Shown here one piece after another: positions 1 through 12,873 of a stretch of 64,000 nucleotides of DNA. A model generated the notes under the pieces. The model was given only the letters and a program-made list of their open reading frames with translations, was not told where the DNA came from and ran no database searches. The position numbers and the translations under genes were made by a program. The stretch comes from an uncultured delta proteobacterium (lineage in GTDB: Bacteria; Desulfobacterota; Desulfobacteria; Desulfobacterales; B30-G6), in assembly GCA_963823335.1 (NCBI GenBank), contig CAWGLD010000001.1, forward strand, positions 160,001-224,000. Direction: 5' to 3'. The number at the start of each line of letters is the position of its first letter. Positions within the stretch are counted from its first letter, which is position 1.

Positions 1-344
1 TTGATGTTCGTGGATAGATCGACTTCAGATGGTCGGTTCGAATATTTGATCTCCCCTGCCTTATTGTATATTCGGATGTTCTCTATTTCGGGAAGCCGTC
101 CGATGTTCATGATGATCTGGTTGATGTCGTCCCTGGAATTGAGCATCATGGCGTAATGTGTTCCTAGCTGGATTGTCGTGGTCAACCGGTCGGTTGTATC
201 GACAATGTTCTGCATGGCTTTTTCTTTCTGATAGGCTGTATTGAAATATGCCCAGATCGAGACAGACAGGATAAAGATCAGACCAACCGTCAGGATGAGT
301 TTGAAAATGAGTCTGTCGCGGATTGTTTTTATCCAGTTGATCAT
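1..344 (-). CDS. N-terminal part of a membrane sensor histidine kinase (runs off the window)
   Basis: Manual translation from ATG at 344: MINWIKTIRDRLIFKLILTVGLIFILSVSIWAYFN...LGTHYAMMLNSRDDINQIIMNIGRLPEIENIRIYNKAGEIKYSN. TM helix followed by a periplasmic sensor region; open to the window edge. Confidence 0.6.
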   Translation of the reverse strand, partial: MINWIKTIRDRLIFKLILTVGLIFILSVSIWAYFNTAYQKEKAMQNIVDTTDRLTTTIQLGTHYAMMLNSRDDINQIIMNIGRLPEIENIRIYNKAGEIKYSNRPSEVDLSTNI

Positions 345-671
345 GAGGGGACTCTCTTTAAGCTTTTTTTCAGGCGACAGCCCGATTTGTTTTATCTCGA
401 AACGTATCCGTTATCGCGAGGTTCAATTTGAGGCCCAGATCTTCGCCCGGTACCCCGAGCGCCATTCCCAGGAGCTGTGGCAGATAGGGTGTTAAGTTTC
501 ATTGCCAGATTGGTATCCGATGTCCGGAATAAAATCGAATGCGTATTAAAACTATTATTTACAAAAATGCACTATCCTGAAATTTTCAAAAGCGCTTAAA
601 GAGACAGGAACTGGTGTTGATTGGGGCTCTAAAGAATTACACACATAGTGGTGGATAAAAATTACAGATAC

Positions 672-845
672 ATGGAGACAAGTCCAACTATCTGATAATT
701 GATAAAAATGTCAGATACCATATGGTCATCGCCAAGGTATCACGGTAGGGCCTATCAATGCAATATTTGGTCTGTTGCGATTATAATCGCACACCGGTAT
801 ATTTTCAACAGTCTGATATCTAACGAATTGTTGGATATTTCCAAC
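672..845. repeat. Paired L+R repeat unit 1 (empty)
   Basis: L motif ATGGAGACAAGTCCAACTATC...GATACC at 672-719; R motif TGCGATTATAATCGCACACCGGTA...CTGATATCTAACGAATTGTTGGA from 776. Confidence 0.75.
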
Positions 846-850
846 CTTTA

Positions 851-1291
851 TTAAGGTTTAATCCGAATTAATCTATGACCAAAAAGACAACGTCTTCTAT
901 CACATAGATCCTCCTGCACAGTAAATTCAAACTTGCTTTTTTCTATTTTCTTTATGGTATACTTTCCTGTATTAGTTTTACACGCAGGACTTTCTAACGG
1001 AATAAAAGTAATATCTTCCCCCTCTAATCTAATTCGGCCTTTATCTATCGGTCTCGTTTCAATTTTTTCGACACTATAGGCGATTCTATAAGTTCCATCA
1101 TTATAAAATTTAATAAATCTAATATACATATCATTGTCTGTGTCTGGCTTCCAAATACCAATTAAATCCTGCAATTGAATATCAGTTTCCGTGCATTGCC
1201 CATCATCAAATGGTAAATTTAAAATTAATATAATTGCCATAAAGAAAACTGAGAATCTTAACTGCATAGCTTCCTCCTTTTTTATTGGCAA
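851..1291 (-). CDS. Hypothetical exported protein
   Basis: 146-aa AT-rich ORF with hydrophobic N-terminus, an LIGIWK motif and paired Cys. True start is probably MQLRF, after an AAGGAGG RBS. Confidence 0.6.
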   Translation of the reverse strand: MPIKKEEAMQLRFSVFFMAIILILNLPFDDGQCTETDIQLQDLIGIWKPDTDNDMYIRFIKFYNDGTYRIAYSVEKIETRPIDKGRIRLEGEDITFIPLESPACKTNTGKYTIKKIEKSKFEFTVQEDLCDRRRCLFGHRLIRIKP

Positions 1292-1595
1292 GATAGATCA
1301 AAATTAGTCTATAACCTTTGCACAAATCATTAAATGAAGAAAATATCCGTTTCTGCAACCGGAGGAATATAGAGGTTCAGCAAGAGAGGGAACTTAGGAA
1401 CAAATCATCTTTTTATGTCGTTTGAATTTTGTTTTGAGCTGAGAGCATCACAGAAAGTTGGAATAAATATCAATACAATGCACTATTAATTGATGTCAAT
1501 ATTATACATGACCCATTAGCTCAAAAGTAATACGTTGAAGGGCATCCATAGGTTGCATTGGCAGTCGTTTTGATCCAGTAGCCACTATGTGATTA

Positions 1596-1842
1596 ATGGA
1601 GAGATGTCCAGTTATCAAGCTCAACCAAATTATTGCCGATACAATCTGGATATATTAAGTCTATCGCATCATTAAACCTGGTGTCAAACTGTAGACCCTA
1701 ATAACGCTGGTTTGTGCCAATAAAAAAGGGGCAATCCATCGCTCGGATTCACCCCTCTAATTTGTGATTATTTTCGCACATCGGTGGTTTTTAAGGTGCC
1801 TGATAACCTTGTTTTTGTTGGAGATAGGGCAGGTTTTTATAA
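1596..1842. repeat. Paired L+R repeat unit 2 (empty)
   Basis: L: ATGGAGAGATGTCCAGTTATCAAGC...AAATTATTGCCGATAC..TGGATAT (1596-1653). R: TGTGATTATTTTCGCACATCGGT..TTTTAAGGTGCCTGATA...GTTGGAGAT..CAGGTTTT (1763-1842). Confidence 0.8.
1721..1756 (-). terminator. Intrinsic terminator downstream of mttB
   Basis: On the minus strand: AGGGGTGAATCCGAGCGATGGATTGCCCC hairpin followed by a T run. Confidence 0.55.
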
Positions 1843-2033
1843 GCAAAAATGATTGCAGATATGCCTAAATCCCTTTAATGTCACAATCGTTTCGAGCCTG
1901 CAGTTTCTATTGCATCACTTCTGTCGTGATTATTATCGACTGTGTCTGAGTTATTGTCCTTGCCATCCTCATCCTTATGCATTGTTTCTTAGCCCGAAAA
2001 CATGCAATAATGGACAGAAGAAAGGACGCATTA

Positions 2034-3521
2034 TTATCCCTCTTTATCTCCGTCATAGATACCCAACTCCTCCTCTGCCTCTACGACGATGGATCGAACT
2101 TTTTTTAGAACATCAGCCGACAGTTGGGGAGGTTCATAGCTTTCCAGGATTTCGATCATCCTCTCATGGGAACGTTGGTATGCATCCTTGCTTCCGGCGG
2201 CTTCCCAGTCTTCCCGCATCCTCCGGTCGATCAATTGAGCCTGCGACTGCGATCGCATGTACTCAAAGGTAGTCTGGTGAGACAGATAATCCTTACCTAT
2301 TCCCATCTCCTTGATGACATCGATGGCAAGAGTAGTGTCGTTCACCGGAACTCCCTTCAATGAATGTAGAATCATCTCGGCAATCTCATGGTCCCACACG
2401 AGTTGAGCCAGGTCGAAAGTGATTCCCATCTCAAGCATTCCCAATCCGTAGATGACATTGGCACCTGCCAATGCGGGAAGAATGCCGGTGATGGTCTTTT
2501 CAAAACCCGCCTGGGCGTCGACCACCTTGCTGTCGCCCTATCCACCGGCCACAAAACATGGCAGGCTGTAGTAACGCGCTAGCCGCGCAACTGCTGCGCT
2601 GATCATGCCAGTTTCCGGTGATCCAACACTGGCCGTGGCCCTGCGCAGATCCAACGGGCATGTGGAACTGCCGTAAACGAACTGAGCTCCTTTGCGGGTC
2701 AATTGCTGCAGAACCAAACTGGACAAAAGTTCACAGTTTTGGATGATCAGTGTTCCGGCCAGGTGAACTGGCCCAGAGCCTGCCGACATTGCCATACCAA
2801 CTACGTTCAGCCCCATGTAACTCGTAGCGGCCTCCATGACGATGTCGCAGTGGTGTAACGGGAGTTTCAAGGGGCTGATGGGGCAAGTCGTAAATGACAG
2901 CAGCGGTCGTTTTTTTAGGCGCTCTCTGCCGCCTACGATGGCAGCGCACATCTCTGTAATTTTTTTGGCCTGGAAGCCGTCCACTGGGCACAGCCAGTGG
3001 TGCTTAGTGGTGTTCGTCAACGATGCTTCGGCATTATGGAGTGCCTGTGATTCCGGTGGTTTGTCGTGTGAACACATAGCCCGTTCATAAGTCTCGATAT
3101 TATCCAGGCTGTCAATGATCCTGGCCGCTTTTTCGATATCCGCCTTCGTGGTTTCCCGGTGTTCTCCGGTATAGGGGTCTACGAACATGATGCCTTCACC
3201 AAAATTGGTAAAGGTTACCCGATTATCTTCCAGCAGCACGTCATCCTCGGGTCTTCGGCCGCAGGCGTAATAGGTGCCGGGGGCGGAATTGATGGCATCT
3301 TCGATTACCCAGTGAGGAAACTTGACGACTTTATTTTTTCGATCGACGTCGCATCCCCCACCGTCAAATCGCTCCAGGGCCACTTCGTTTTCTACGAACA
3401 GTCCGACATCCTTCAGTATTTCCAGGGTTCCAAGATGGATTTCATGAACTTCGTCATCGGTCATGACGTTCAGGCTGAAACCTGAATTACGATTTTTTCC
3501 CGCTTTTAATCTCCGTTTCAT
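2034..3521 (-). CDS. mttB: Trimethylamine:corrinoid methyltransferase with in-frame amber (pyrrolysine) codon at 2540-2538
   Basis: ORFs 2538..3521 and 2034..2525 are one frame: ...LPCFVAGG-TAG-GDSKVVDAQAGFEK...; 495 aa on read-through. MttB-like motifs FTNFGEG, GSPETGMI, GMLEMGITFD; AGGAGG RBS. Confidence 0.92.
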
Positions 3522-3784
3522 AAAATCATAACCTCCTGTTTTTCTGTTATCGTTGGATTTGCCCGATTCCGCATGTGATGTTATCTTGCACTTACTTTTC
3601 TGGTATCAAGACTTTATTAAAAGCTATGTATAAGGAGAGACTATTGCAAAAAGGCCATTGGATGTTTGCTTTGATCTTACCGTATGAGTTAAACATGTCC
3701 AACCGTTTTTGTACACGGCTGTTGGTAAATAATGACGATAATCATCCGTCGGGGGTATCACAACATCTATCAAAGTGGTGATTG

Positions 3785-3842
3785 ATGGAGACAAGTCCAG
3801 TTATCAAACTTGATGAAATTATTGCCGATACCTTTTGGATAT
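3785..3842. repeat. L repeat of unit 3 (upstream of integrase)
   Basis: ATGGAGACAAGTCCAGTTATCAAACTTGATGAAATTATTGCCGATACCTTTTGGATAT; aligns with the copies at 672 and 1596. Confidence 0.85.
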
Positions 3843-3900
3843 CATAGAATAGCCTTGGCACTGGGCCATTGTCAAACATTTTAGCCAAAGGAGGTATGTC

Positions 3901-4738
3901 ATGAAAGTATCAAAAGCAGGAAAAATCTGGCTCGATTATCACCGAATCCATTCCAAAAAAAAATACGGTTAGGGCCCACTCTTTCGTCCTGGATAGTTTC
4001 AGAATCCAATTCGGTGATTACGAACTTGGAGATCTGTCCGTTGATAACATTCTGGATTTCATGAACCAGCTCACCGAAGGGCGTAAACCACAAACAAAAC
4101 GGGGTCGATTCACAAGCCTGTTAGCATTTCTTAATTTTTCCAAAAACAACCTCGATCCTGATTTCACCAATCCCTGCGACTCACCCATGCTGCGAAAACT
4201 GTTCCGGCCTAAGATAAAACCCCAATTTGATATTCTCGAAAAAGAAACCATGGACGAGATCATTTTTCGGACAGTTCATCCCAGAAACCGTTTGATGCTC
4301 GAACTCATGGCTCGGGGTGCCATGCGAATAGGTGAGGTGTTGAAAATTGTACCCAATGATATTTCTGAAAGGAAAATACTGTTAAGAGAGCCGAAAAGTG
4401 GCCGTGAGTGTGAAATGATATTTATTCCCCAAAAGGTGGCTGATCGCCTGAGAGAGTATGTCGAAACTCATAAAATCGGATTACAGGAAAGGATATTTCC
4501 GATTTGTTATGAGGCTGCTCGTTCGATAGTGGCAAAAGCTGGTAAGTTGGTTGGCATCCATCTCAGACCACATGATCTGCGACGCCATGCTGCAACATTT
4601 GCTTCCCGCTCAGGAGTGCCGCTTGAAATTGTGAGCAAGATTATTCTCCGGCATTCAAACTTATCGACCACCCAAATATATTTGGGCAGGATCAGCGATA
4701 CAGAGGCGTTGAAGTGGATTGAAACTATCTACAGCTAA
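3901..4738 (+). CDS. Tyrosine recombinase/integrase, frame shifted at an A9 run (3955-3963)
   Basis: GGAGG RBS and ATG at 3901 give MKVSKAGKIWLDYHRIHSKK; the +1 frame continues NTVRAHSFVL... into ORF 4061..4738. Catalytic R (AMRIGE), K (PKSG), HDLRR, H and Y (RHSNLSTTQIY) are present. Confidence 0.85.
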
Positions 4739-4783
4739 AAGGGGGAAAGGGTGGATTCCGTTGCCCGGAACCACCCTTCAAAC

Positions 4784-4862
4784 TGCGATTATTTTCGCAC
4801 ATCGGTACTTTTTAAGGTACCTGATATCTACCGAATCGTTGGAGATTCCACAGGTTTTATAA
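4784..4862. repeat. R repeat of unit 3 (downstream of integrase)
   Basis: TGCGATTATTTTCGCACATCGGTACTTTTTAAGGTACCTGATATCTACCGAATCGTTGGAGAT..CAGGTTTTATAA; preceded by a hairpin as in unit 2. Confidence 0.85.
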
Positions 4863-4903
4863 CGGATAGAAAACCTGAGGTACATAATAGCAGTTATCTG
4901 CAA

Positions 4904-5068
4904 TACAGTAGCCTGAGGGGGATGGATGCATATTACATAAAGCCGGACGACGACGATTTGAAACAGGCAATGGAAGTCTATACCGCTTGGTTCGATGAAC
5001 AACTGGTGGCTGCGGAACAGGCAAATGAAAAACAGCAAAAAGTGAAAATTCCCCTCCAATCCTCATAA
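4904..5068 (+). pseudogene. Probable C-terminal relic of a second phage-type integrase
   Basis: SSLRGMDAYYIKPDDDDLKQAMEVYTAWFDEQL resembles, from recall, the GH..GM..HY..P....L..AM tail of tyrosine integrases. No N-terminal part. Confidence 0.4.
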
Positions 5069-5472
5069 GCCATCCGCCTGCTAATGCTATCAATATCACA
5101 GGTCCTCGCGTCCTCCATAGTTTGATGTTTTTACATATCTGAAATTGGATTAGCAACTGGATGTTAAGATCATTTCGGGCAAAATATAATCCATACATCG
5201 ATACTTCGATAATGGTTGTTATACGCATGCCGCATCCCAACAAACTTGTAGATGGCGAGTATGGAACCTGTGATATCCCGAGACAACAATCTTGAAATAG
5301 CTAATCTCTTGACCCATCCTTCCAAATCAGGTACTAATTTTATAGTCGCTTAAATCACACCTGCTCTGATACTGAATGACATCATTGAACTTGACCTGAC
5401 CTGAATCTCGACCTGTCCGTATATTTCCAAGACGTATCATCTTCTTCAAACCCTAACCAGAAGGTGATCATC

Positions 5473-8400
5473 ATGCCCAACGAACAAAAAGTCACCAGAA
5501 AACTTAGAGCCATTCTTTCTGCCGATGTCAAAGGTTACAGCATCCTCATGGCGGACGATGAAGTTTCTACAGTCCAGACTTTGAAGGATTACCGGAATAT
5601 CATGTCAAATTATATCGAACAGCATGGTGGCAGGGTTGTGGATGCTGTTGGGGATAACCTGTTGGCGGAGTTTGGCAGTGTGGTGGATGCTGTTCAGTGT
5701 GCTGTTGAAATTCAAAAGAAACTAAACGAAAAGAACAAAGATATACCTGAAAATAAGAGACTTCAGTTCCGTATTGGCGTCAATATTGGTGATGTGATTC
5801 AGGATGGTGACAGAATCTTTGGTGACGGTGTCAACATCGCAGCACGGATAGAGGGGCTTGCAGATGCTGGCGGTGTTTGTATTTCTCGGAATGCCTATGA
5901 TCATATTAGGACCAAATTAGACCTGGGTTATGAGTATCTTGGTGAACACAGTGTAAAGAATATCAGCCAACCCGTCAGGGTTTACAAGGTTCTAATGTGT
6001 TACGTTGATGCTTCTGTGGCAGGAATATAAAGCCAAAATCCGGACGGCTATCAATATAGTCAGTTTTGCCATTTATATCGCCAGTGGGTCGGCCGCGTCG
6101 ATCCGGTCATGCGCCAGGTTCATCGTGCCGGCGAAAAGATGTTTGTGGATTACGCCGGTCAGACCGTTGGTGTCTATGGCCTGGCATCAAAACAAACCCG
6201 CGAAGCTCAAATCTTTATCGCCGTTCTGGGCGCTTCAAACTACACCTATGCCGAAGCTACCTGGACACAAAAATTGCCGGACTGGATCGCTTCCCACTGC
6301 CGGGCCTATGCATATATCGCCGGTGTCCCCGAAGTGACCGTTCCGGATAATTTAAAAAGCGGTGTTAAAGATCCTGTTTTTACGAACCGGACATCAATCC
6401 CACATATCTCGATATGGCCCAACACTATGGGACCGCCGTCATCCCGGCACGGGTTGCCAAACCCAAGGACAAGGCAAAGGTGGAAACCGGCGTGCTGATT
6501 GTCGAGCGATGGATCCTGGCACGGCTTCGCAACCAACAGTTTTTCAGCCTTCAGCAACTCAATGAAGCCATCAGAAACTTATTGTTGGATCTCAACAAAA
6601 AACCGTTTCAAAAATTGCCGGGATGTTGGCAATCGACGTTCTTGGCTGTTGATAAACCGGCACTCAAGTCTTTGCCGCAAACACCCTATGAGTTTGCGGA
6701 ATGGAAAAAAGCCCGGGTAAACGTCGATTACCACATTGAAGTGGATCGACATTATTACAGTGTCCCTTACAAACTGATTAAAAAACAGATTGATGTTCGC
6801 ATCACCAACAGAACCATCGAGTGTATCTATAACAACAAAAGAGTTGCCAGCCATATCCGCGACTACCGGAAAGGATGGCATACCACCGTAAAAGAGCATA
6901 TGCCTAAGTCCCATCAGAATATGGCCGATTGGACACCGGATCGTTTCATTCGCTGGTCTCAAAAAATAGGTTTGCAAACCACCCAGCTGATCATGTCGTG
7001 CTGGGATCCTGCGGACTCTGGTAAATTGATCGGTGAAGAACCGAGGCGTCCGAGAAAGAAATGGTTTTTACCTGTAGCTGTGGTTGCCGCAATCATTGTG
7101 ACATCCATAGTTTGGCATTTTTACCAAAAAGCGACAAAGCCTGATATTGAACCTGCTTCAGTGGGGGAAATGGCTTTCAGCCTACCGGACTAAGCCTTCC
7201 CTTGCCGTTCTTCCCTTTGACAATATGAGCGGTGATCCAGAGCAGGCGTACGTGAGTGATGGCATTACAGAAGCTATAATAATGTCGGTTTCAAAAATCC
7301 GTCACCTATTTGTTATCGCCAGGAACTCCACGTTTGTTTACAAAAACAAGGCCGTGAAAGTCCAGCAAGTAGCACAGGATCTTGGGGTCCAATATGTGCT
7401 TGAAGGCAGTGTCCAGCGTTCAGGCGATAGGTTACGTGTTACAGCCCAGCTTATCGATGCGTTGAATGGCCGCCATATTTGGGCTGAACAATATGATCGA
7501 GACCTGAAAGATCTCTTTGACATGCAAGATGAGATCACTATGGAGATTTTAGAAGCCATGCGGGTCAAACTCATCGAAGGGGAGCAAATATCAAAGGCCA
7601 AACGTCCCCAAAATGTTCAATCTGCTCTGAAGATTTATCAAGCTCAGGCTTACAGCCTTCGATTTACGCCGGAAGCAATGGTCACGGCAAAAAAGATAGC
7701 AGAAGAAGTGGTGGCCGTAGAACCTGAGTACGGGGAAGCTTACTATATCCTATCGACAATTCACATGATGGAGATGTGGTATGGCACGGGTAAGTCACCA
7801 AAGGATTCGCTTTTAAAAGCCACAGAGTATGCAGAGAAAGCTATTTCCCTTGATGATTCTCTTTCCCAGGCCATGGGCATTCTTGGGTATTGCTATGGAT
7901 TAAGCAGACAGTGGGACGAATCTGTTGCCGTAGCAGAGAAAGGCGTCGCAATCGATCCAAATGGAGCCGATGCTCACGCTTGGCTGGGTAATTGTCTGAA
8001 TTTTGCATATCGGTACAAGGACGCCATACCCTTTTTCGATAAAGCCATGAGACTTAATCCTTATCCGCCTCCGTGGTATTATTTTACGCTCGCCGTTTCG
8101 CATATTGGTCTGGGTCGATATGAGGAGGCTATTACCTTGCTGGAAAAGTCCTTATCTGTCTCGCCGAACAACCTTACAGCGTATTTGACTATTATACGAC
8201 CATATCTGTACACGGGCAGAGAGGATGAAGCTCGTGCAGCAGCTCAAAGAGTGTTACAGATCAATCCGAAGTTTTCAGTAGAAGATTGGGTTAGTAAAAT
8301 GCCTTACAAGGAACCGGGATATCCTGAGAAGGTGGCTGAGGCTTTGTACAAGGCGGGTATACCAGAAACACCACCACTCCCTCTACCCGATAAACCCTCA

Positions 8401-9575
8401 ATAGCCGTCCTCGCTTTCGATAACCTGAGCGGTGACCCTGAGCAGGAGTATTTCAGTGATGGCATTACCGAAGAGATCATCTCCGCCCTCTCAAAGACAG
8501 ATCAACTTTTTGTGATTGCTCGTAACTCATCGTTTGTCTACAAGGGCAAGCCGGTCAATGTAAAGCAAGTCGCAAGGGAATTGGGCGTGCACTATGTGCT
8601 CGAAGGCAGTGTCCGAATTTCTGAAGATCGGGTGAGGATTACAGCACAGTTGATCGATGCCATTTCGGGTCATCACCTTTGGGCGGAACGTTATGACCGT
8701 GATTTAAAAGACATCTTTGCCCTGCAAGACGAGATTACCATCAAGATAGTGTCCTCCCTGCAAATAAAGCTTACAGAGGGCGAGCAATCTCGTATGTGGA
8801 TCAAGAGATAATGCAAGAAACCTTGATGTTAAGTTAAAAACGATGGAATTATTGTCTCTTTGGCGAGAAGACACAATAGAAAGTCATATGCTGTATGGCC
8901 AGCTATCACAGGAAGTCATCGATATGGCTCCTAAATATCCGGTCGGCTACCTTACATTAGCTTGGCATCACTGGTGGCTTGCTTTGACACTTGGCAAATC
9001 ACCCCAAGAGAATTTGACAAAAGCCTTTAATCTGGCACAAAAGGTTCTTTCTATGGATGAATCTAATGCCGACGCCCATGCCTTATTAGGAAGTATCTAC
9101 ATGGTTATGAGGCAACATGATAAGGCCATTGCCGCAGGGAAGCGCTCTATAGAGCTTCAACCAAATGGGGCTATGGTACATGGGCTTTTGGGTTTTACAC
9201 TATACTTTGCGGATCAGCCGGATGAAGGCATTGTGTATCTTAACAAGGGGATTCGGCTCAACCCTTTTCCTGCCTCTTGGTACTTTCAACATTTAGGCAG
9301 CTGTTATGCGATTAAAGGGCAGTATGAGAAAGCTCTGACATTGTACAAGCAAGCACTTCTGAGAAGTCCCAGACACTTTCACTATACATTTGAGTTTAGC
9401 TATTACGTATGCTTTATTAGACCGGCAAAAGGAGGCTGACGCAGCTGTCAAAAAAGTCCTGGAACTCTATCCCAGTTTTTCTATTGAGCGTTTTTCCGCA
9501 ACACTGCCGTATAAAAATCAAGACGATCTTAAATTAGTAGTAGGTGCTATGCGTAAGGCTGGTTTGCCGGAGTGA
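5473..9575 (+). pseudogene. Class III adenylate/guanylate cyclase-TolB-like-TPR protein, disrupted
   Basis: Cyclase motifs (AILSADVKGYS, VGDNLLAEF, FRIGVNIGDV, GDGVNIAARIE), a TM helix, then two KPSxAVLxFDNxSGDPEQ + TPR modules. Interrupted by an istA fragment, with frame breaks near 7191, 8810 and 9390. Confidence 0.85.
5998..7004 (+). mobile_element. istA: Internal fragment of IS21-family transposase istA (frameshifted)
   Basis: [40 protein letters not shown] and [15 protein letters not shown] motifs; two or more frameshifts; no termini and no istB. Confidence 0.85.
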
Positions 9576-9928
9576 GCATAACTATTTCAAAATATGATAT
9601 ATCTCCAAAATATGCTGATCCATCCCCTCAATTTCAAATCAGCTTAAACCCGCAGAACAGGAAACATTGTGATATCGTCATCTCAGTGGACTCGCCTGAA
9701 CCTGATATCATATGAAACCTTAACCGCATGGTTCGATGAAGAACTCGAAAATGCAAATGTTGACCTACTCGTTGACCTTTTCACACAAAGTCAATTCTGG
9801 TGTACTATTAAATCTATTGAATATAAGTAGTTATACATACCTGTCTTTATAAACCCTTACAAACAGTATACAAATGAAAAAGGGGCAGCCACCGAAGTAG
9901 CTAACCCCTTCTTTTCATTGAGATCTTA

Positions 9929-10004
9929 TGGTGCCGAGGGACAGAATCGAACTGCCGACACGGGGATTTTCAGTCCCCTGCTCTACCGACTGAGCTACCT
10001 CGGC
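9929..10004 (-). tRNA. tRNA-Phe (GAA)
   Basis: Reverse complement GCCGAGGTAGCTCAGTCGGTAGAGCAGGGGACTGAAAATCCCCGTGTCGGCAGTTCGATTCTGTCCCTCGGCACCA; 76 nt, cloverleaf, CCA end. Confidence 0.97.
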
Positions 10005-10066
10005 AAGACCTCAATTAGACTGGTATAGATATTAAAGGGGCTGGTATTTGTCAAGATATTTCTGAG

Positions 10067-10229
10067 GTGGCTTCAAACCTTCTCTCAAGCTCAATCTCTG
10101 TGCTGAAACGAAGCGTTCAATCCTAAAAATACAAGGTGTATTCACCCCAAGGACACTTCCTGCGGGCGCCGGCGGGTTAAACAGCTCGCCTCGCCTTGAC
10201 CTTAAGCTTGATTGAACGTTTGAAACCAC
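10067..10229. repeat. MITE-like palindromic element (family A)
   Basis: Terminal inverted repeats GTGGCTTCAAAC / GTTTGAAACCAC; internal motifs shared with 15728-15875. Confidence 0.55.
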
Positions 10230-10328
10230 TTTAAGCTTTGTGGCTTTGATTTGCACTGCCCGCCTACACCTAATATGCAGACCATCAGCCGCATGTAAAT
10301 TTCCCTGGGGAAAAAAGTCCCCTTGTCT

Positions 10329-11081
10329 TCATTTCCCCCCCATATCCCCAAAAAGATACTGCATCAGGGTACAGACGGAAAGGGCCGCGGTCTCGGCTTT
10401 CAGTATTCTGGAGCCCAGGCTGACACTTCGATAGCCAAGGGTGACCGCCTTTTCAATTTCGGCCTTCGAGAATCCACCCTCCGGGCCGATGATGGCAAAG
10501 ACACTTTCACATCTATCCGGAACAGGGTCCAACACCTCAGGCAGTGTCCGGGTTTCCTCTTCCCAGAAAATCAATTTCAGATCATCTTCTCTTCCCATCT
10601 CCAGGGCCTCGTCAAAGGATACGATATCAGCCAGCTCGGTCAACAAGCTCCGTTGACACTGCTTCATGGATTCTATGATGATGGACCGCCACCGTTCCAG
10701 ACGCACAGGCAGTTTTGCCTTGGCCGGCACTGGAATGGAACGCTCGGAAAAGAACGGGACCCATCGCGTGATGCCAAGTTCGGTGATCTGCCGGGCCAGC
10801 ATGTCCATTTTTTTGCCTTTCAGCATGGCCTGGGCAAAGGTGATCTTTACCGGGGAATCCATGGTGGTGTGAATTCTTTTGACCGGTGACACCCTCACCT
10901 GGTCAGGTGAGATCGTCTTGATTTGCGCTTCATAATCGTTGCCCCTGCCGTCAAAAACCACCAGTGTGTCACCGTGCTTCATACGCAGGACAGTACGGAT
11001 ATGTCGTGCATCTGAACCGCCGATACTGCCTTCCTGACCAATGCCAGCCTTATCCTGCCAAAAAAAACGTCTCATCTCCAT
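10329..11081 (-). CDS. rsmE: 16S rRNA m3U1498 methyltransferase
   Basis: HIRTVLR, ITELGI, IGPEGGFS and SLGSRILKAETA motifs. Confidence 0.95.
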   Translation of the reverse strand: MEMRRFFWQDKAGIGQEGSIGGSDARHIRTVLRMKHGDTLVVFDGRGNDYEAQIKTISPDQVRVSPVKRIHTTMDSPVKITFAQAMLKGKKMDMLARQITELGITRWVPFFSERSIPVPAKAKLPVRLERWRSIIIESMKQCQRSLLTELADIVSFDEALEMGREDDLKLIFWEEETRTLPEVLDPVPDRCESVFAIIGPEGGFSKAEIEKAVTLGYRSVSLGSRILKAETAALSVCTLMQYLFGDMGGK

Positions 11082-11325
11082 ATTCCGGCAACTTTCTCAT
11101 GCAAGTCTGTTTTTCCATTTACTCAACGGTCGATCCTCTTACGTCAGGATTATTTTCTCTTCTATAACCCGCATGAATACTGCTTTATCACAATTATCTA
11201 AAATATCAAATATATTGACACTATAGATGCCTTATGATACGTTCTTCGGGATAAATTTACCCAAATCCTGCACCATGGGTGACCGTCCGGGCGGCCTATT
11301 TTTCGATCCAAACACGGGGGATGAC

Positions 11326-12873
11326 ATGGTAGATAAAGACGATCTCTTTCAGGAAGAAGACGGCAGCACGCCTCAAGACCATGACAGAGATGAACCTCTT
11401 ACCGACGAAGACGACGATATCATCGACCTTTTAGATACGGTTGAAATGCCTGTGCAAGATATCGAGGAAGACATCATCGAGCTCGAAGATATGGTCGAGG
11501 CGCCTGTCGACGAGATTATAGAGCTTACAGAAGAAACCCAAGGGCCAGTGGCGGACGATGACGTTCTCGATCTGACAGAGGTGGTCACCGACGAGGACGA
11601 ACCGCGAGACGATATTCTGGAACTCACCGAGATCGCCGATACAGATGATACACAGGATGATGGGGTTCTGGATCTCACCCAAAAGACGGCAGGGTTCGAC
11701 CTGGATGATGAGATCATCGATCTGACGGAAGCCACGGCTGATGACAAGGTTTTCGACCTTTTAGATACAGCTGAAATACCGGCCCAGAACATGGCCGAAG
11801 ACATCATCGATCTGGAGAAACCCGCGGCTGATGACGAGGTTTTCGACCTTTTAGATACGGTTGAAATACCGGCCCAGGGCATGACCGAAGACATCATCGA
11901 TCTGGAGGAACCCGCGGCTGATGACGAGGTTTTCGACCTTTTAGATACGGTTGAAATACCGGCCCAGAACATGACCGAAGACATCATCGATCTGGAGGAA
12001 CCCGCGGCTGATGACGAGGTTTTCGACCTTTTAGATACGATTGAAATACCGGCCCAGGGCATGACCGAAGACATCATCGAACCGGCGGACACAACCCAGG
12101 AGTTTGCGTTTGACGCCGATGATAACGATGACATTCTCAGTTCAACAGAAACCCCGGCCGATAGCAAAGTCTTTGACTTTTTGGACACGATTGAAATCCC
12201 CGCCCAGGACACAGCCGAAGACATCATCGAACCGGCGGACACGGTTCAGGAGCTTGACTTTGCTGCCGAAAACGACAGCCTCGGTCTAACAGATGCCGTG
12301 GCCCAGGACGATATTGACGAAGCAGCCTTGGATCCGGATGAACCTGATGAACCCGTGGAGACAGATCAGGAAGAACGCTTTGAAGAAACCATTGCGCTGC
12401 CATCATCCGGATACGAAGAAGACAAGGAGCTGTTGGAACTCATCGATGATATCCAGGCAACCCTCAACGATGAACCCCTATCCGCCCGCGTCGGTGACCA
12501 GGAGAGCACAGCTCCGACGGATGAAGTCATTGATACGGACACTCTTGAAGAAAATGCCGACGCATACACCTTTCTGAATGACGATGATCTCATCGAAGAC
12601 GGGGGCGTACCGGAATCTGAATCTGAATTCGTCGACCACCTTGGTATCGATCTCACCTCGGAGATCGAAAGAAAGGCATTGGAGGAAAACCAGGAAGCGG
12701 TCATGGAAGATGTCAAACCAACCAAAGACATGGAATCAGGCATCGCACCGGGCGCCGTGGAGACAGCCGTCAAACAGGCCCTTACCGAAATGCTGGCGGA
12801 TGAGAACAATCCACTGGCCAAGGCCATTGAAAATGCGGTCAGAAAAGCATTGGGTCAAGGGGAAGATACTTAA
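11326..12873 (+). CDS. Very acidic, repeat-rich disordered protein (PopZ/RomR-like scaffold candidate)
   Basis: Asp/Glu-rich with many DDIIDL/DEVFDL/DDVLDL motifs and a short helical C-terminus; directly upstream of valS. Start chosen at MVDKDD after GGGGG. Confidence 0.75.
   Translation: MVDKDDLFQEEDGSTPQDHDRDEPLTDEDDDIIDLLDTVEMPVQDIEEDIIELEDMVEAPVDEIIELTEETQGPVADDDVLDLTEVVTDEDEPRDDILELTEIADTDDTQDDGVLDLTQKTAGFDLDDEIIDLTEATADDKVFDLLDTAEIPAQNMAEDIIDLEKPAADDEVFDLLDTVEIPAQGMTEDIIDLEEPAADDEVFDLLDTVEIPAQNMTEDIIDLEEPAADDEVFDLLDTIEIPAQGMTEDIIEPADTTQEFAFDADDNDDILSSTETPADSKVFDFLDTIEIPAQDTAEDIIEPADTVQELDFAAENDSLGLTDAVAQDDIDEAALDPDEPDEPVETDQEERFEETIALPSSGYEEDKELLELIDDIQATLNDEPLSARVGDQESTAPTDEVIDTDTLEENADAYTFLNDDDLIEDGGVPESESEFVDHLGIDLTSEIERKALEENQEAVMEDVKPTKDMESGIAPGAVETAVKQALTEMLADENNPLAKAIENAVRKALGQGEDT
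11737..12085 (+). repeat. Intragenic tandem repeat, 90-bp (30-aa) unit, about 4 copies
   Basis: GCTGATGAC(A/G)AGGTTTTCGACCTTTTAGATAC... recurs at 11737, 11827, 11917 and 12007. Confidence 0.95.

Follow-up and report, generated by a model that had tools for sequence, protein, structure and literature searches.

A 64,000-nt stretch of DNA from an uncultured sediment member of the Desulfobacterales, a bacterium of sulfate-reducer type (hereafter, the window) carries a gene of the trimethylamine (TMA) methyltransferase family that is interrupted by an in-frame amber codon and lies among repeats and a recombinase. The locus raises two questions: whether the gene encodes a functional pyrrolysine (Pyl)-containing enzyme and how it came to occupy such a position. 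The gene, mttB, annotated as a Pyl-type [trimethylamine--corrinoid protein] Co-methyltransferase, occupies 2034–3521 on the minus strand, from an ATG at 3521–3519 to a TAA at 2036–2034, and comprises 495 codons including one UAG. A Shine-Dalgarno sequence, AGGAGG, can be read on the same strand at 3532–3537, 10 nt before the ATG. The sole internal stop of the frame is the TAG at 2540–2538 (codon 328, minus strand) in the context FVAGG*GDSKVVDAQAGFEK, which divides the ORF listing into two same-frame halves of 327 aa (2538–3521) and 163 aa (2034–2525). Reading through TAG yields 495 residues. This product covers positions 1–469 of the 469 in the TIGR02369 profile and aligns to residues 3–484 of PDB 7XCL, leaving no second lesion. 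An earlier sequence-only reading had described a single TAG, two same-frame ORFs, a 495-aa read-through product, and no other damage; direct reading of the frame and the full-length profile and structure coverage confirm each of these points.

The read-through product scores 687 bits against TIGR02369, the NCBIfam equivalog of the Pyl-type TMA methyltransferase (EC 2.1.1.250; cut-off, 525), over the whole profile and 283 bits against the Pfam MTTB family (PF06253). Its best structure match is MttB of Methanosarcina barkeri (7XCM and 7XCL; E about 1e-113), with which it is alignable over its full length. In the structure–sequence alignment, codon 328 pairs with X334, the Pyl of 7XCL. The same column holds Leu in the non-Pyl MtgB (2QNE, 9YCE), so the amber codon sits in the Pyl column of the methanogen enzyme and non-Pyl members have a standard residue there, as the sequence-only reading had supposed. 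By this alignment, the window gene is not of the MtgB type: it has TAG where MtgB has a sense codon. MtgB of Desulfitobacterium hafniense shares the MttB superfamily fold (236 bits) but is a glycine betaine methyltransferase, acting on a quaternary amine. Gly110, Met249, Pyl334, and Tyr364 are described as active-site residues of M. barkeri MttB, with Gly110 and Tyr364 fully conserved among Pyl-MttBs, in the sections consulted of Li et al. 2023 (PMC9842639; structures 7XCL, 7XCM, and 7XCN). In the alignment to 7XCL, Gly110, Met249, and Tyr364 correspond to G108, M243, and Y358 of the window protein. The two enzymes differ in that Thr111, beside the catalytic Gly, is replaced by Glu in the window MttB; in the bacterial host; in the lack of an adjacent mttC, mttP, or ramA; and in the downstream methyl acceptor, presumably tetrahydrofolate here and not coenzyme M.

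The genome is a draft of 4.37 Mb in 11 contigs, estimated to be 93.9% complete and 4.59% contaminated, with the window mttB on the 2.0-Mb contig C1. Genome-wide, there are 26 MTTB-family matches, six of them full length with TAG in the Pyl column and about 13 without it; these non-Pyl paralogues have A, V, S, C, G, T, M, or L in that column. Five mtbB genes are also present, each with one in-frame TAG. Together, the six Pyl-mttB, five Pyl-mtbB, and about 13 non-Pyl genes form a very large methylamine/quaternary-amine methyltransferase set. The closest paralogue of the window MttB (C7:56452–57921, 75% identity) lies in a methylamine gene cluster (C7:52570–59529) with a URO-D-type methyltransferase, a DAO/GCV_T DMGDH-like flavoprotein, and a non-Pyl MttB. 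One Pyl-mttB paralogue (locus L011) has Ser at the position that alignment by eye pairs with Gly110 of M. barkeri MttB.

Such a paralogue-rich genome invites the alternative that the window gene encodes a Pyl-containing enzyme of the MttB clade with another tertiary or methylated amine as substrate, the six paralogues dividing substrates among themselves. The presence of six Pyl copies in one genome (the others are 34–75% identical to the window copy) plus about 13 non-Pyl genes would fit this division of labor, as would the lack of a dedicated corrinoid partner for the window copy and the Thr111-to-Glu replacement next to the catalytic Gly. We nevertheless regard a different substrate as unlikely: the other five Pyl-MttBs score 553–765 bits, so that all six exceed the TMA-methyltransferase equivalog cut-off; the equivalents of Gly110, Met249, Pyl334, and Tyr364 are conserved in the window protein; and the portions of the literature covered describe no Pyl-MttB acting on a different substrate.

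Conservation of the amber codon was assessed in a scan of one genome per species, which gave 65 related mttB loci, nearly all labelled Desulfobacterales or relatives and including those of the cultured Desulfocicer vacuolatum and Desulforhopalus singaporensis. Every one of the 61 primary orthologues that extend as far as the Pyl column has TAG there, at protein identities of 63–99%. When the 27 residues preceding the TAG codon were used as a query for the next codon, the segment was found 86 times in 62 of the 65 loci. TAG comes next in 72 of these matches; a GCN (Ala) codon follows in 13, all within a second, non-Pyl MttB-family gene just upstream; and the remaining match runs off its contig. 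For 18 of the 65 loci, selected to span the range of identities, dN/dS was 0.026–0.063 before TAG and 0.056–0.121 after it, these values coming only from pairs with unsaturated dS, as several of the 18 pairs were saturated. The low ratios after TAG indicate that this part of mttB is under purifying selection, which argues that the 3′ part is translated. A PYLIS-like structure was sought in the 124 nt from TAG onward, which fold no better than shuffled sequences (z = -0.80; 49 of 200 shuffles as good). A structured recoding signal after UAG was rejected on this z score.

The genome also encodes what is needed to decode UAG as Pyl. The sequence-only reading had pointed to pylT, pylSn/pylSc, and pylBCD as genes to look for, and all are present, every protein scoring above its NCBIfam cut-off (PylSc, 327 bits; PylC, 390; PylD, 251; PylSn, 132; PylB, 455). 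ARAGORN places tRNA-Pyl(CUA) at C2:80111–80184 on the minus strand, followed directly by pylSc, pylC, pylD, and pylSn; its neighbors include a corrinoid protein, another Pyl-mttB, and a Pyl-mtbB. The pylB gene stands apart from this cluster, at C1:1461420–1462460. This region (C1:1461405–1462487) has an aldehyde:ferredoxin oxidoreductase gene on one side and ABC-transporter genes on the other, and a pterin-binding methyltransferase and a class-III aminotransferase are encoded upstream of it. A tRNA-Sec(UCA) is found at C6:16589–16686, so the organism probably uses both selenocysteine (Sec) and Pyl.

UAG is ambiguous in this organism, and not reassigned, because TAG still terminates 655 of 3,050 crude long ORFs (21.5%). 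Across the same 3,050 ORFs, there was no sign of amber-codon avoidance, and the following in-frame stop comes at a median of 15 codons after TAG and 14 after TAA or TGA. With TAG such a common terminator, read-through would compete with termination, and a truncated product of 327 aa is expected alongside the full-length protein. Were this fragment the only product, TAG would be a nonsense mutation and mttB a pseudogene. Frequent use of TAG as a true stop in this genome would allow such a reading, and the copy is isolated from partner genes amid mobile-element debris (the 225-aa recombinase described below and an IS21 fragment at 6414–7193). Yet this codon falls exactly at the Pyl column and is conserved in all 61 orthologues, dN/dS is about 0.06–0.12 after TAG with no second lesion, and the pyl system is complete, making a pseudogene highly improbable.

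The TAG at 2538–2540 is not an assembly error, because contigs from three public runs, one a DNA run (2427–2885) and two RNA-library runs (2237–2646 and 2299–2678), bridge the codon with no differing letter listed; a sense codon in the reads, which would have spoken against the sequence-only reading, is thus countered by independent contigs that carry TAG. Those from the RNA libraries reach both sides of TAG with three to five letter differences from the window, which is not proof of transcription, and the public-run contigs span only parts of the stretch, so that empty bins carry no meaning. A sequencing or assembly error, or a gene on a contaminating contig, has a negligible chance of explaining the TAG: the draft of 11 contigs with its estimated contamination would permit it, but the three independent runs agree, the gene lies on a 2.0-Mb contig, and five other mttB and five mtbB genes of the genome carry the same kind of TAG.

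Pyl-MttB genes typically, though not strictly by definition, adjoin mttC. No mttC, ramA, or second methyltransferase was found beside the window mttB, either in window positions 1–12873 or in the 16 kb before the window, and the only corrinoid-related gene nearby is a corrinoid adenosyltransferase about 6 kb away. The partners must therefore act in trans. Candidates exist elsewhere in the genome, which encodes four pyl-type corrinoid proteins (two over the cut-off) and four RACo/RamA-type activases; the corrinoid protein encoded at C2:80311–80892 is one candidate partner. The expectation that mttC and ramA genes accompany the enzyme consequently holds at the level of the genome and fails at the locus itself. 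DsrA is also encoded (616 bits), with an adjoining DsrB-like gene.

Gene integrity, the Pyl column, the conserved catalytic residues, selection after UAG, and the complete pyl machinery are what this analysis establishes; from them, we infer that UAG is in fact read through, that the enzyme acts on TMA, and which route the methyl group then takes. The window gene very probably encodes a functional Pyl-containing MttB. In the proposed scheme, UAG codon 328 would be decoded by Pyl-tRNA(CUA) charged by the split PylSn/PylSc, with Pyl made by PylBCD, the genes for all of these components lying at other places in this genome. If the enzyme works as M. barkeri MttB does, the Pyl imine would bind TMA as a methylammonium adduct, and the methyl group would pass to Co(I) of a corrinoid protein encoded in trans and then to tetrahydrofolate through a second methyltransferase. 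Oxidation of the methyl group through the Wood-Ljungdahl pathway would deliver electrons to sulfate or sulfite reduction. The sequence-only reading had called the gene a functional Pyl enzyme, a claim supported by the position of TAG, its retention in 61 of 61 orthologues, the low dN/dS beyond it, and the full pyl set. Its further proposal, that a sulfate reducer could demethylate TMA, also finds support, in that the pyl set, corrinoid proteins, RamA-type activases, and DsrA occur together in the genome; the proposal was already published in 2021.

That publication (Kivenson, Paul, and Valentine 2021; PMC8318568), in the parts consulted, describes sulfate-reducing Desulfobacterales with Pyl and Sec machinery together, proposes that methyl groups reach the Wood-Ljungdahl pathway by way of a corrinoid protein and a methyltransferase of the MetH family, and argues explicitly that such Desulfobacterales compete with methanogens for TMA. 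The marine 'Deltaproteobacteria-bbl' treated there resembles the window organism in order, enzyme, Pyl and Sec machinery, and the argument for TMA competition; its Pyl-MttB has Pyl at position 327 of 485, compared with 328 of 495 here. The two differ in setting, as mttB of 'Deltaproteobacteria-bbl' lies within 10 genes of its corrinoid protein (PMC8318568), whereas the window mttB stands alone in a repeat-bounded cassette array. The window organism is further set apart by its six Pyl-mttB and five Pyl-mtbB copies. Insofar as these parts of PMC8318568 go, Pyl-MttB in sulfate-reducing Desulfobacterales and competition for TMA are already in print, and the new element is the cassette context. Another deltaproteobacterium, the Delta1 symbiont of Olavius algarvensis, is reported to be exceptionally rich in proteins with Pyl and Sec in the consulted part of Zhang and Gladyshev 2007 (PMC1976440); likened by description only, it is a different organism from a different habitat. 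The earlier statement that Pyl use is sparse in bacteria does not apply to this order: of 201 Desulfobacterales genomes sampled, 29 (in 18 of 125 genera) have PylS, as do all four other sampled genomes of the window organism's family, and Pyl-mttB orthologues occur in 61 related loci.

The window mttB is embedded in a repeat system. Read along the cassette strand, the order is module B (4862–4784), a divergent recombinase, module A (3843–3768), mttB, a repeat unit (1841–1581), an ORF of 146 aa, and another repeat unit (844–660). The recombinase gene (4061–4738, plus strand) encodes a 225-aa tyrosine recombinase with a XerA/XerC-like catalytic domain (PF00589, 65 bits) and is divergent from mttB. 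Its best PDB match is the XerA-type 4A8E, with the HxLRH and LGH...Y motifs aligned, and it scores 21 bits against the integron-integrase model TIGR02249 (cut-off, 265). The module B copy at 4784–4862 (plus strand; repeat search and nhmmer) closes this recombinase platform. Between the recombinase gene and mttB, the module A copy at 3768–3843 (plus strand; nhmmer) marks the break-point between the conserved platform and a variable first cassette. Downstream of mttB, the unit at 1581–1841 (plus strand; repeat search families D1–D3 and the nhmmer unit profile) consists of module A (1581–1654), an atypical 108-nt spacer, and module B (1762–1841). The second cassette ORF (851–1291, minus strand), taken from the ORF listing, had no family match in the profile search and is followed by a complete unit at 660–844 (plus strand; nhmmer, profile positions 14–198). 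Beside the platform, 5464–7193 contains gene fragments: a 188-aa piece of an adenylate/guanylate cyclase domain and the C-terminal part of an IS21 transposase, the latter matching profile positions 208–294 only.

The repeat extends well beyond the window. Its family-specific unit of ~190 nt comprises module A, a 51-nt spacer, and module B, and nhmmer matched it at 89 places in the genome, 47 of which come close to the full length. The units lie in co-oriented arrays, for example 19 over C7:199771–235840 and 14 over C1:85953–117313. Two arrays start beside tRNA genes, that on C7 at tRNA-Arg (C7:198846) and one on C1 at tRNA-Met (C1:1761167). In 54 of the 61 inter-unit intervals (median, 1.7 kb), the longest ORF runs opposite to the A-to-B direction. 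Within C7:198001–238000, the cargo comprises unrelated accessory genes encoding URO-D, GDSL lipase, MFS, DnaJ-domain, Ni-SOD, YceI/rhodanese, acyltransferase, and beta-lactamase-fold proteins, and IS elements and a group II intron are also found inside the array. Three C7-array cassettes are also found individually in three other same-genus genomes, at 98, 95, and 90% identity. A duplication of an Lcl_C cassette in the C7 array covers both flanking units and does not pin down the crossover point. Rfam models, scanned over 20 kb of the C7 array, picked out a tRNA and a domain of a group II intron but nothing else, and gave no match to the repeat unit. Repeat units are present in 14 of 31 relatives (the window genome counted); within the organism's own family, 12 of 14 other genomes have them. 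Among the 65 related mttB loci, units were found only at L021 (full) and L084 (partial), so that mttB is not generally accompanied by the unit.

Sedentary chromosomal integrons have a divergent tyrosine recombinase beside co-oriented arrays of unrelated single-gene cassettes separated by repeats. The system described here is alike in that a divergent tyrosine recombinase adjoins co-oriented, unrelated single-gene cassettes split by a repeat, in that single cassettes are common to several genomes, and in that the arrays contain insertions of IS elements and of a group II intron. As in integrons, unrelated cassettes are co-oriented (in 54 of 61 intervals) and appear to move singly, given the C7 cassettes found elsewhere and the different first cassette of a second platform described below. 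It departs from integrons in having no IntI, in a repeat that is ~190 nt long and conserved in sequence without an attC-type hairpin, and in a recombinase placed inside a split repeat. No IntI-type integrase in the genome passed the cut-off (best TIGR02249 score, 88.5 bits versus 265). An attC-type hairpin was likewise absent: the consensus fold of 17 units has an energy of -7.2 kcal/mol and 0 compensatory pairs, and single-stranded DNA folding of 40 of the 47 full units gave z scores of -0.65 and -0.84. The terminal motifs of the unit are direct, not inverted. A canonical integron was rejected on these grounds: no IntI over the cut-off, no attC-like fold, and direct terminal motifs. A literature search for an association of pyrrolysine with integrons returned nothing related.

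Tentatively, and at somewhat less than even confidence, we suggest that the Pyl-mttB may be the first cassette of an integron-like, non-canonical capture system, in which a small XerA-like recombinase in a split ~190-nt repeat heads a row of co-oriented single-gene cassettes that all end with this repeat. The same platform (module B, recombinase, module A) is carried by a second genome, G198, at 92.8% identity. Homology between the two stops at window position 3785, and a different first cassette follows in G198. No unit module lies closer than about 1.5 kb to the homologues of the window recombinase in genome G205 (57–60% identity), so the link between recombinase and repeat comes from the window genome and G198. 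As these are two near-orthologous platforms only, the mechanism of capture is one that we infer.

A further comparison bears on the movement of mttB itself. The related-genome locus L021 shares window positions 1763–3611 at 97.2% identity in another chromosomal place, and the homology ends at 1763, the edge of module B. The flanks of L021 match C4:364696–373417 of the window genome at 87–90%. Between the window genome and the L021 genome, dS is 0.063–0.086 for mttB and 0.48–0.97 for five flanking genes. That dS for mttB is so far below that of the flanking genes indicates a recent exchange of the mttB segment between related genomes. At L021:7692–9476, the near-identical mttB precedes a single repeat unit, after which comes a B12-binding corrinoid-type protein, both missing at the syntenic C4 locus of the window genome. 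The window mttB, one of six Pyl-mttB paralogues, thus seems to be a recent arrival, brought in as a mobile cassette.

For the organism, the locus provides one more well-supported case in which sulfate-reducing Desulfobacterales can demethylate TMA by means of a Pyl enzyme; methanogens would then have no exclusive claim on TMA where sediments are rich in sulfate, a conclusion already published. What the locus adds is evidence on spread, from a copy that is detached from its partners, placed in a cassette array, and far closer to its counterpart in a related genome than the chromosome around it is. Such a pattern suggests that genes for Pyl-dependent methyltransferases pass singly among hosts already able to read UAG as pyrrolysine. 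The cassette context is the part worth following up, and a separate study of the array system may be warranted. If the cassette reading is true, a gene readable only with an expanded genetic code would be traded as a ready-made cassette among pyl-sharing Desulfobacterales, and the family would, with dozens of arrays located beside tRNA genes, own a previously undescribed type of cassette array.
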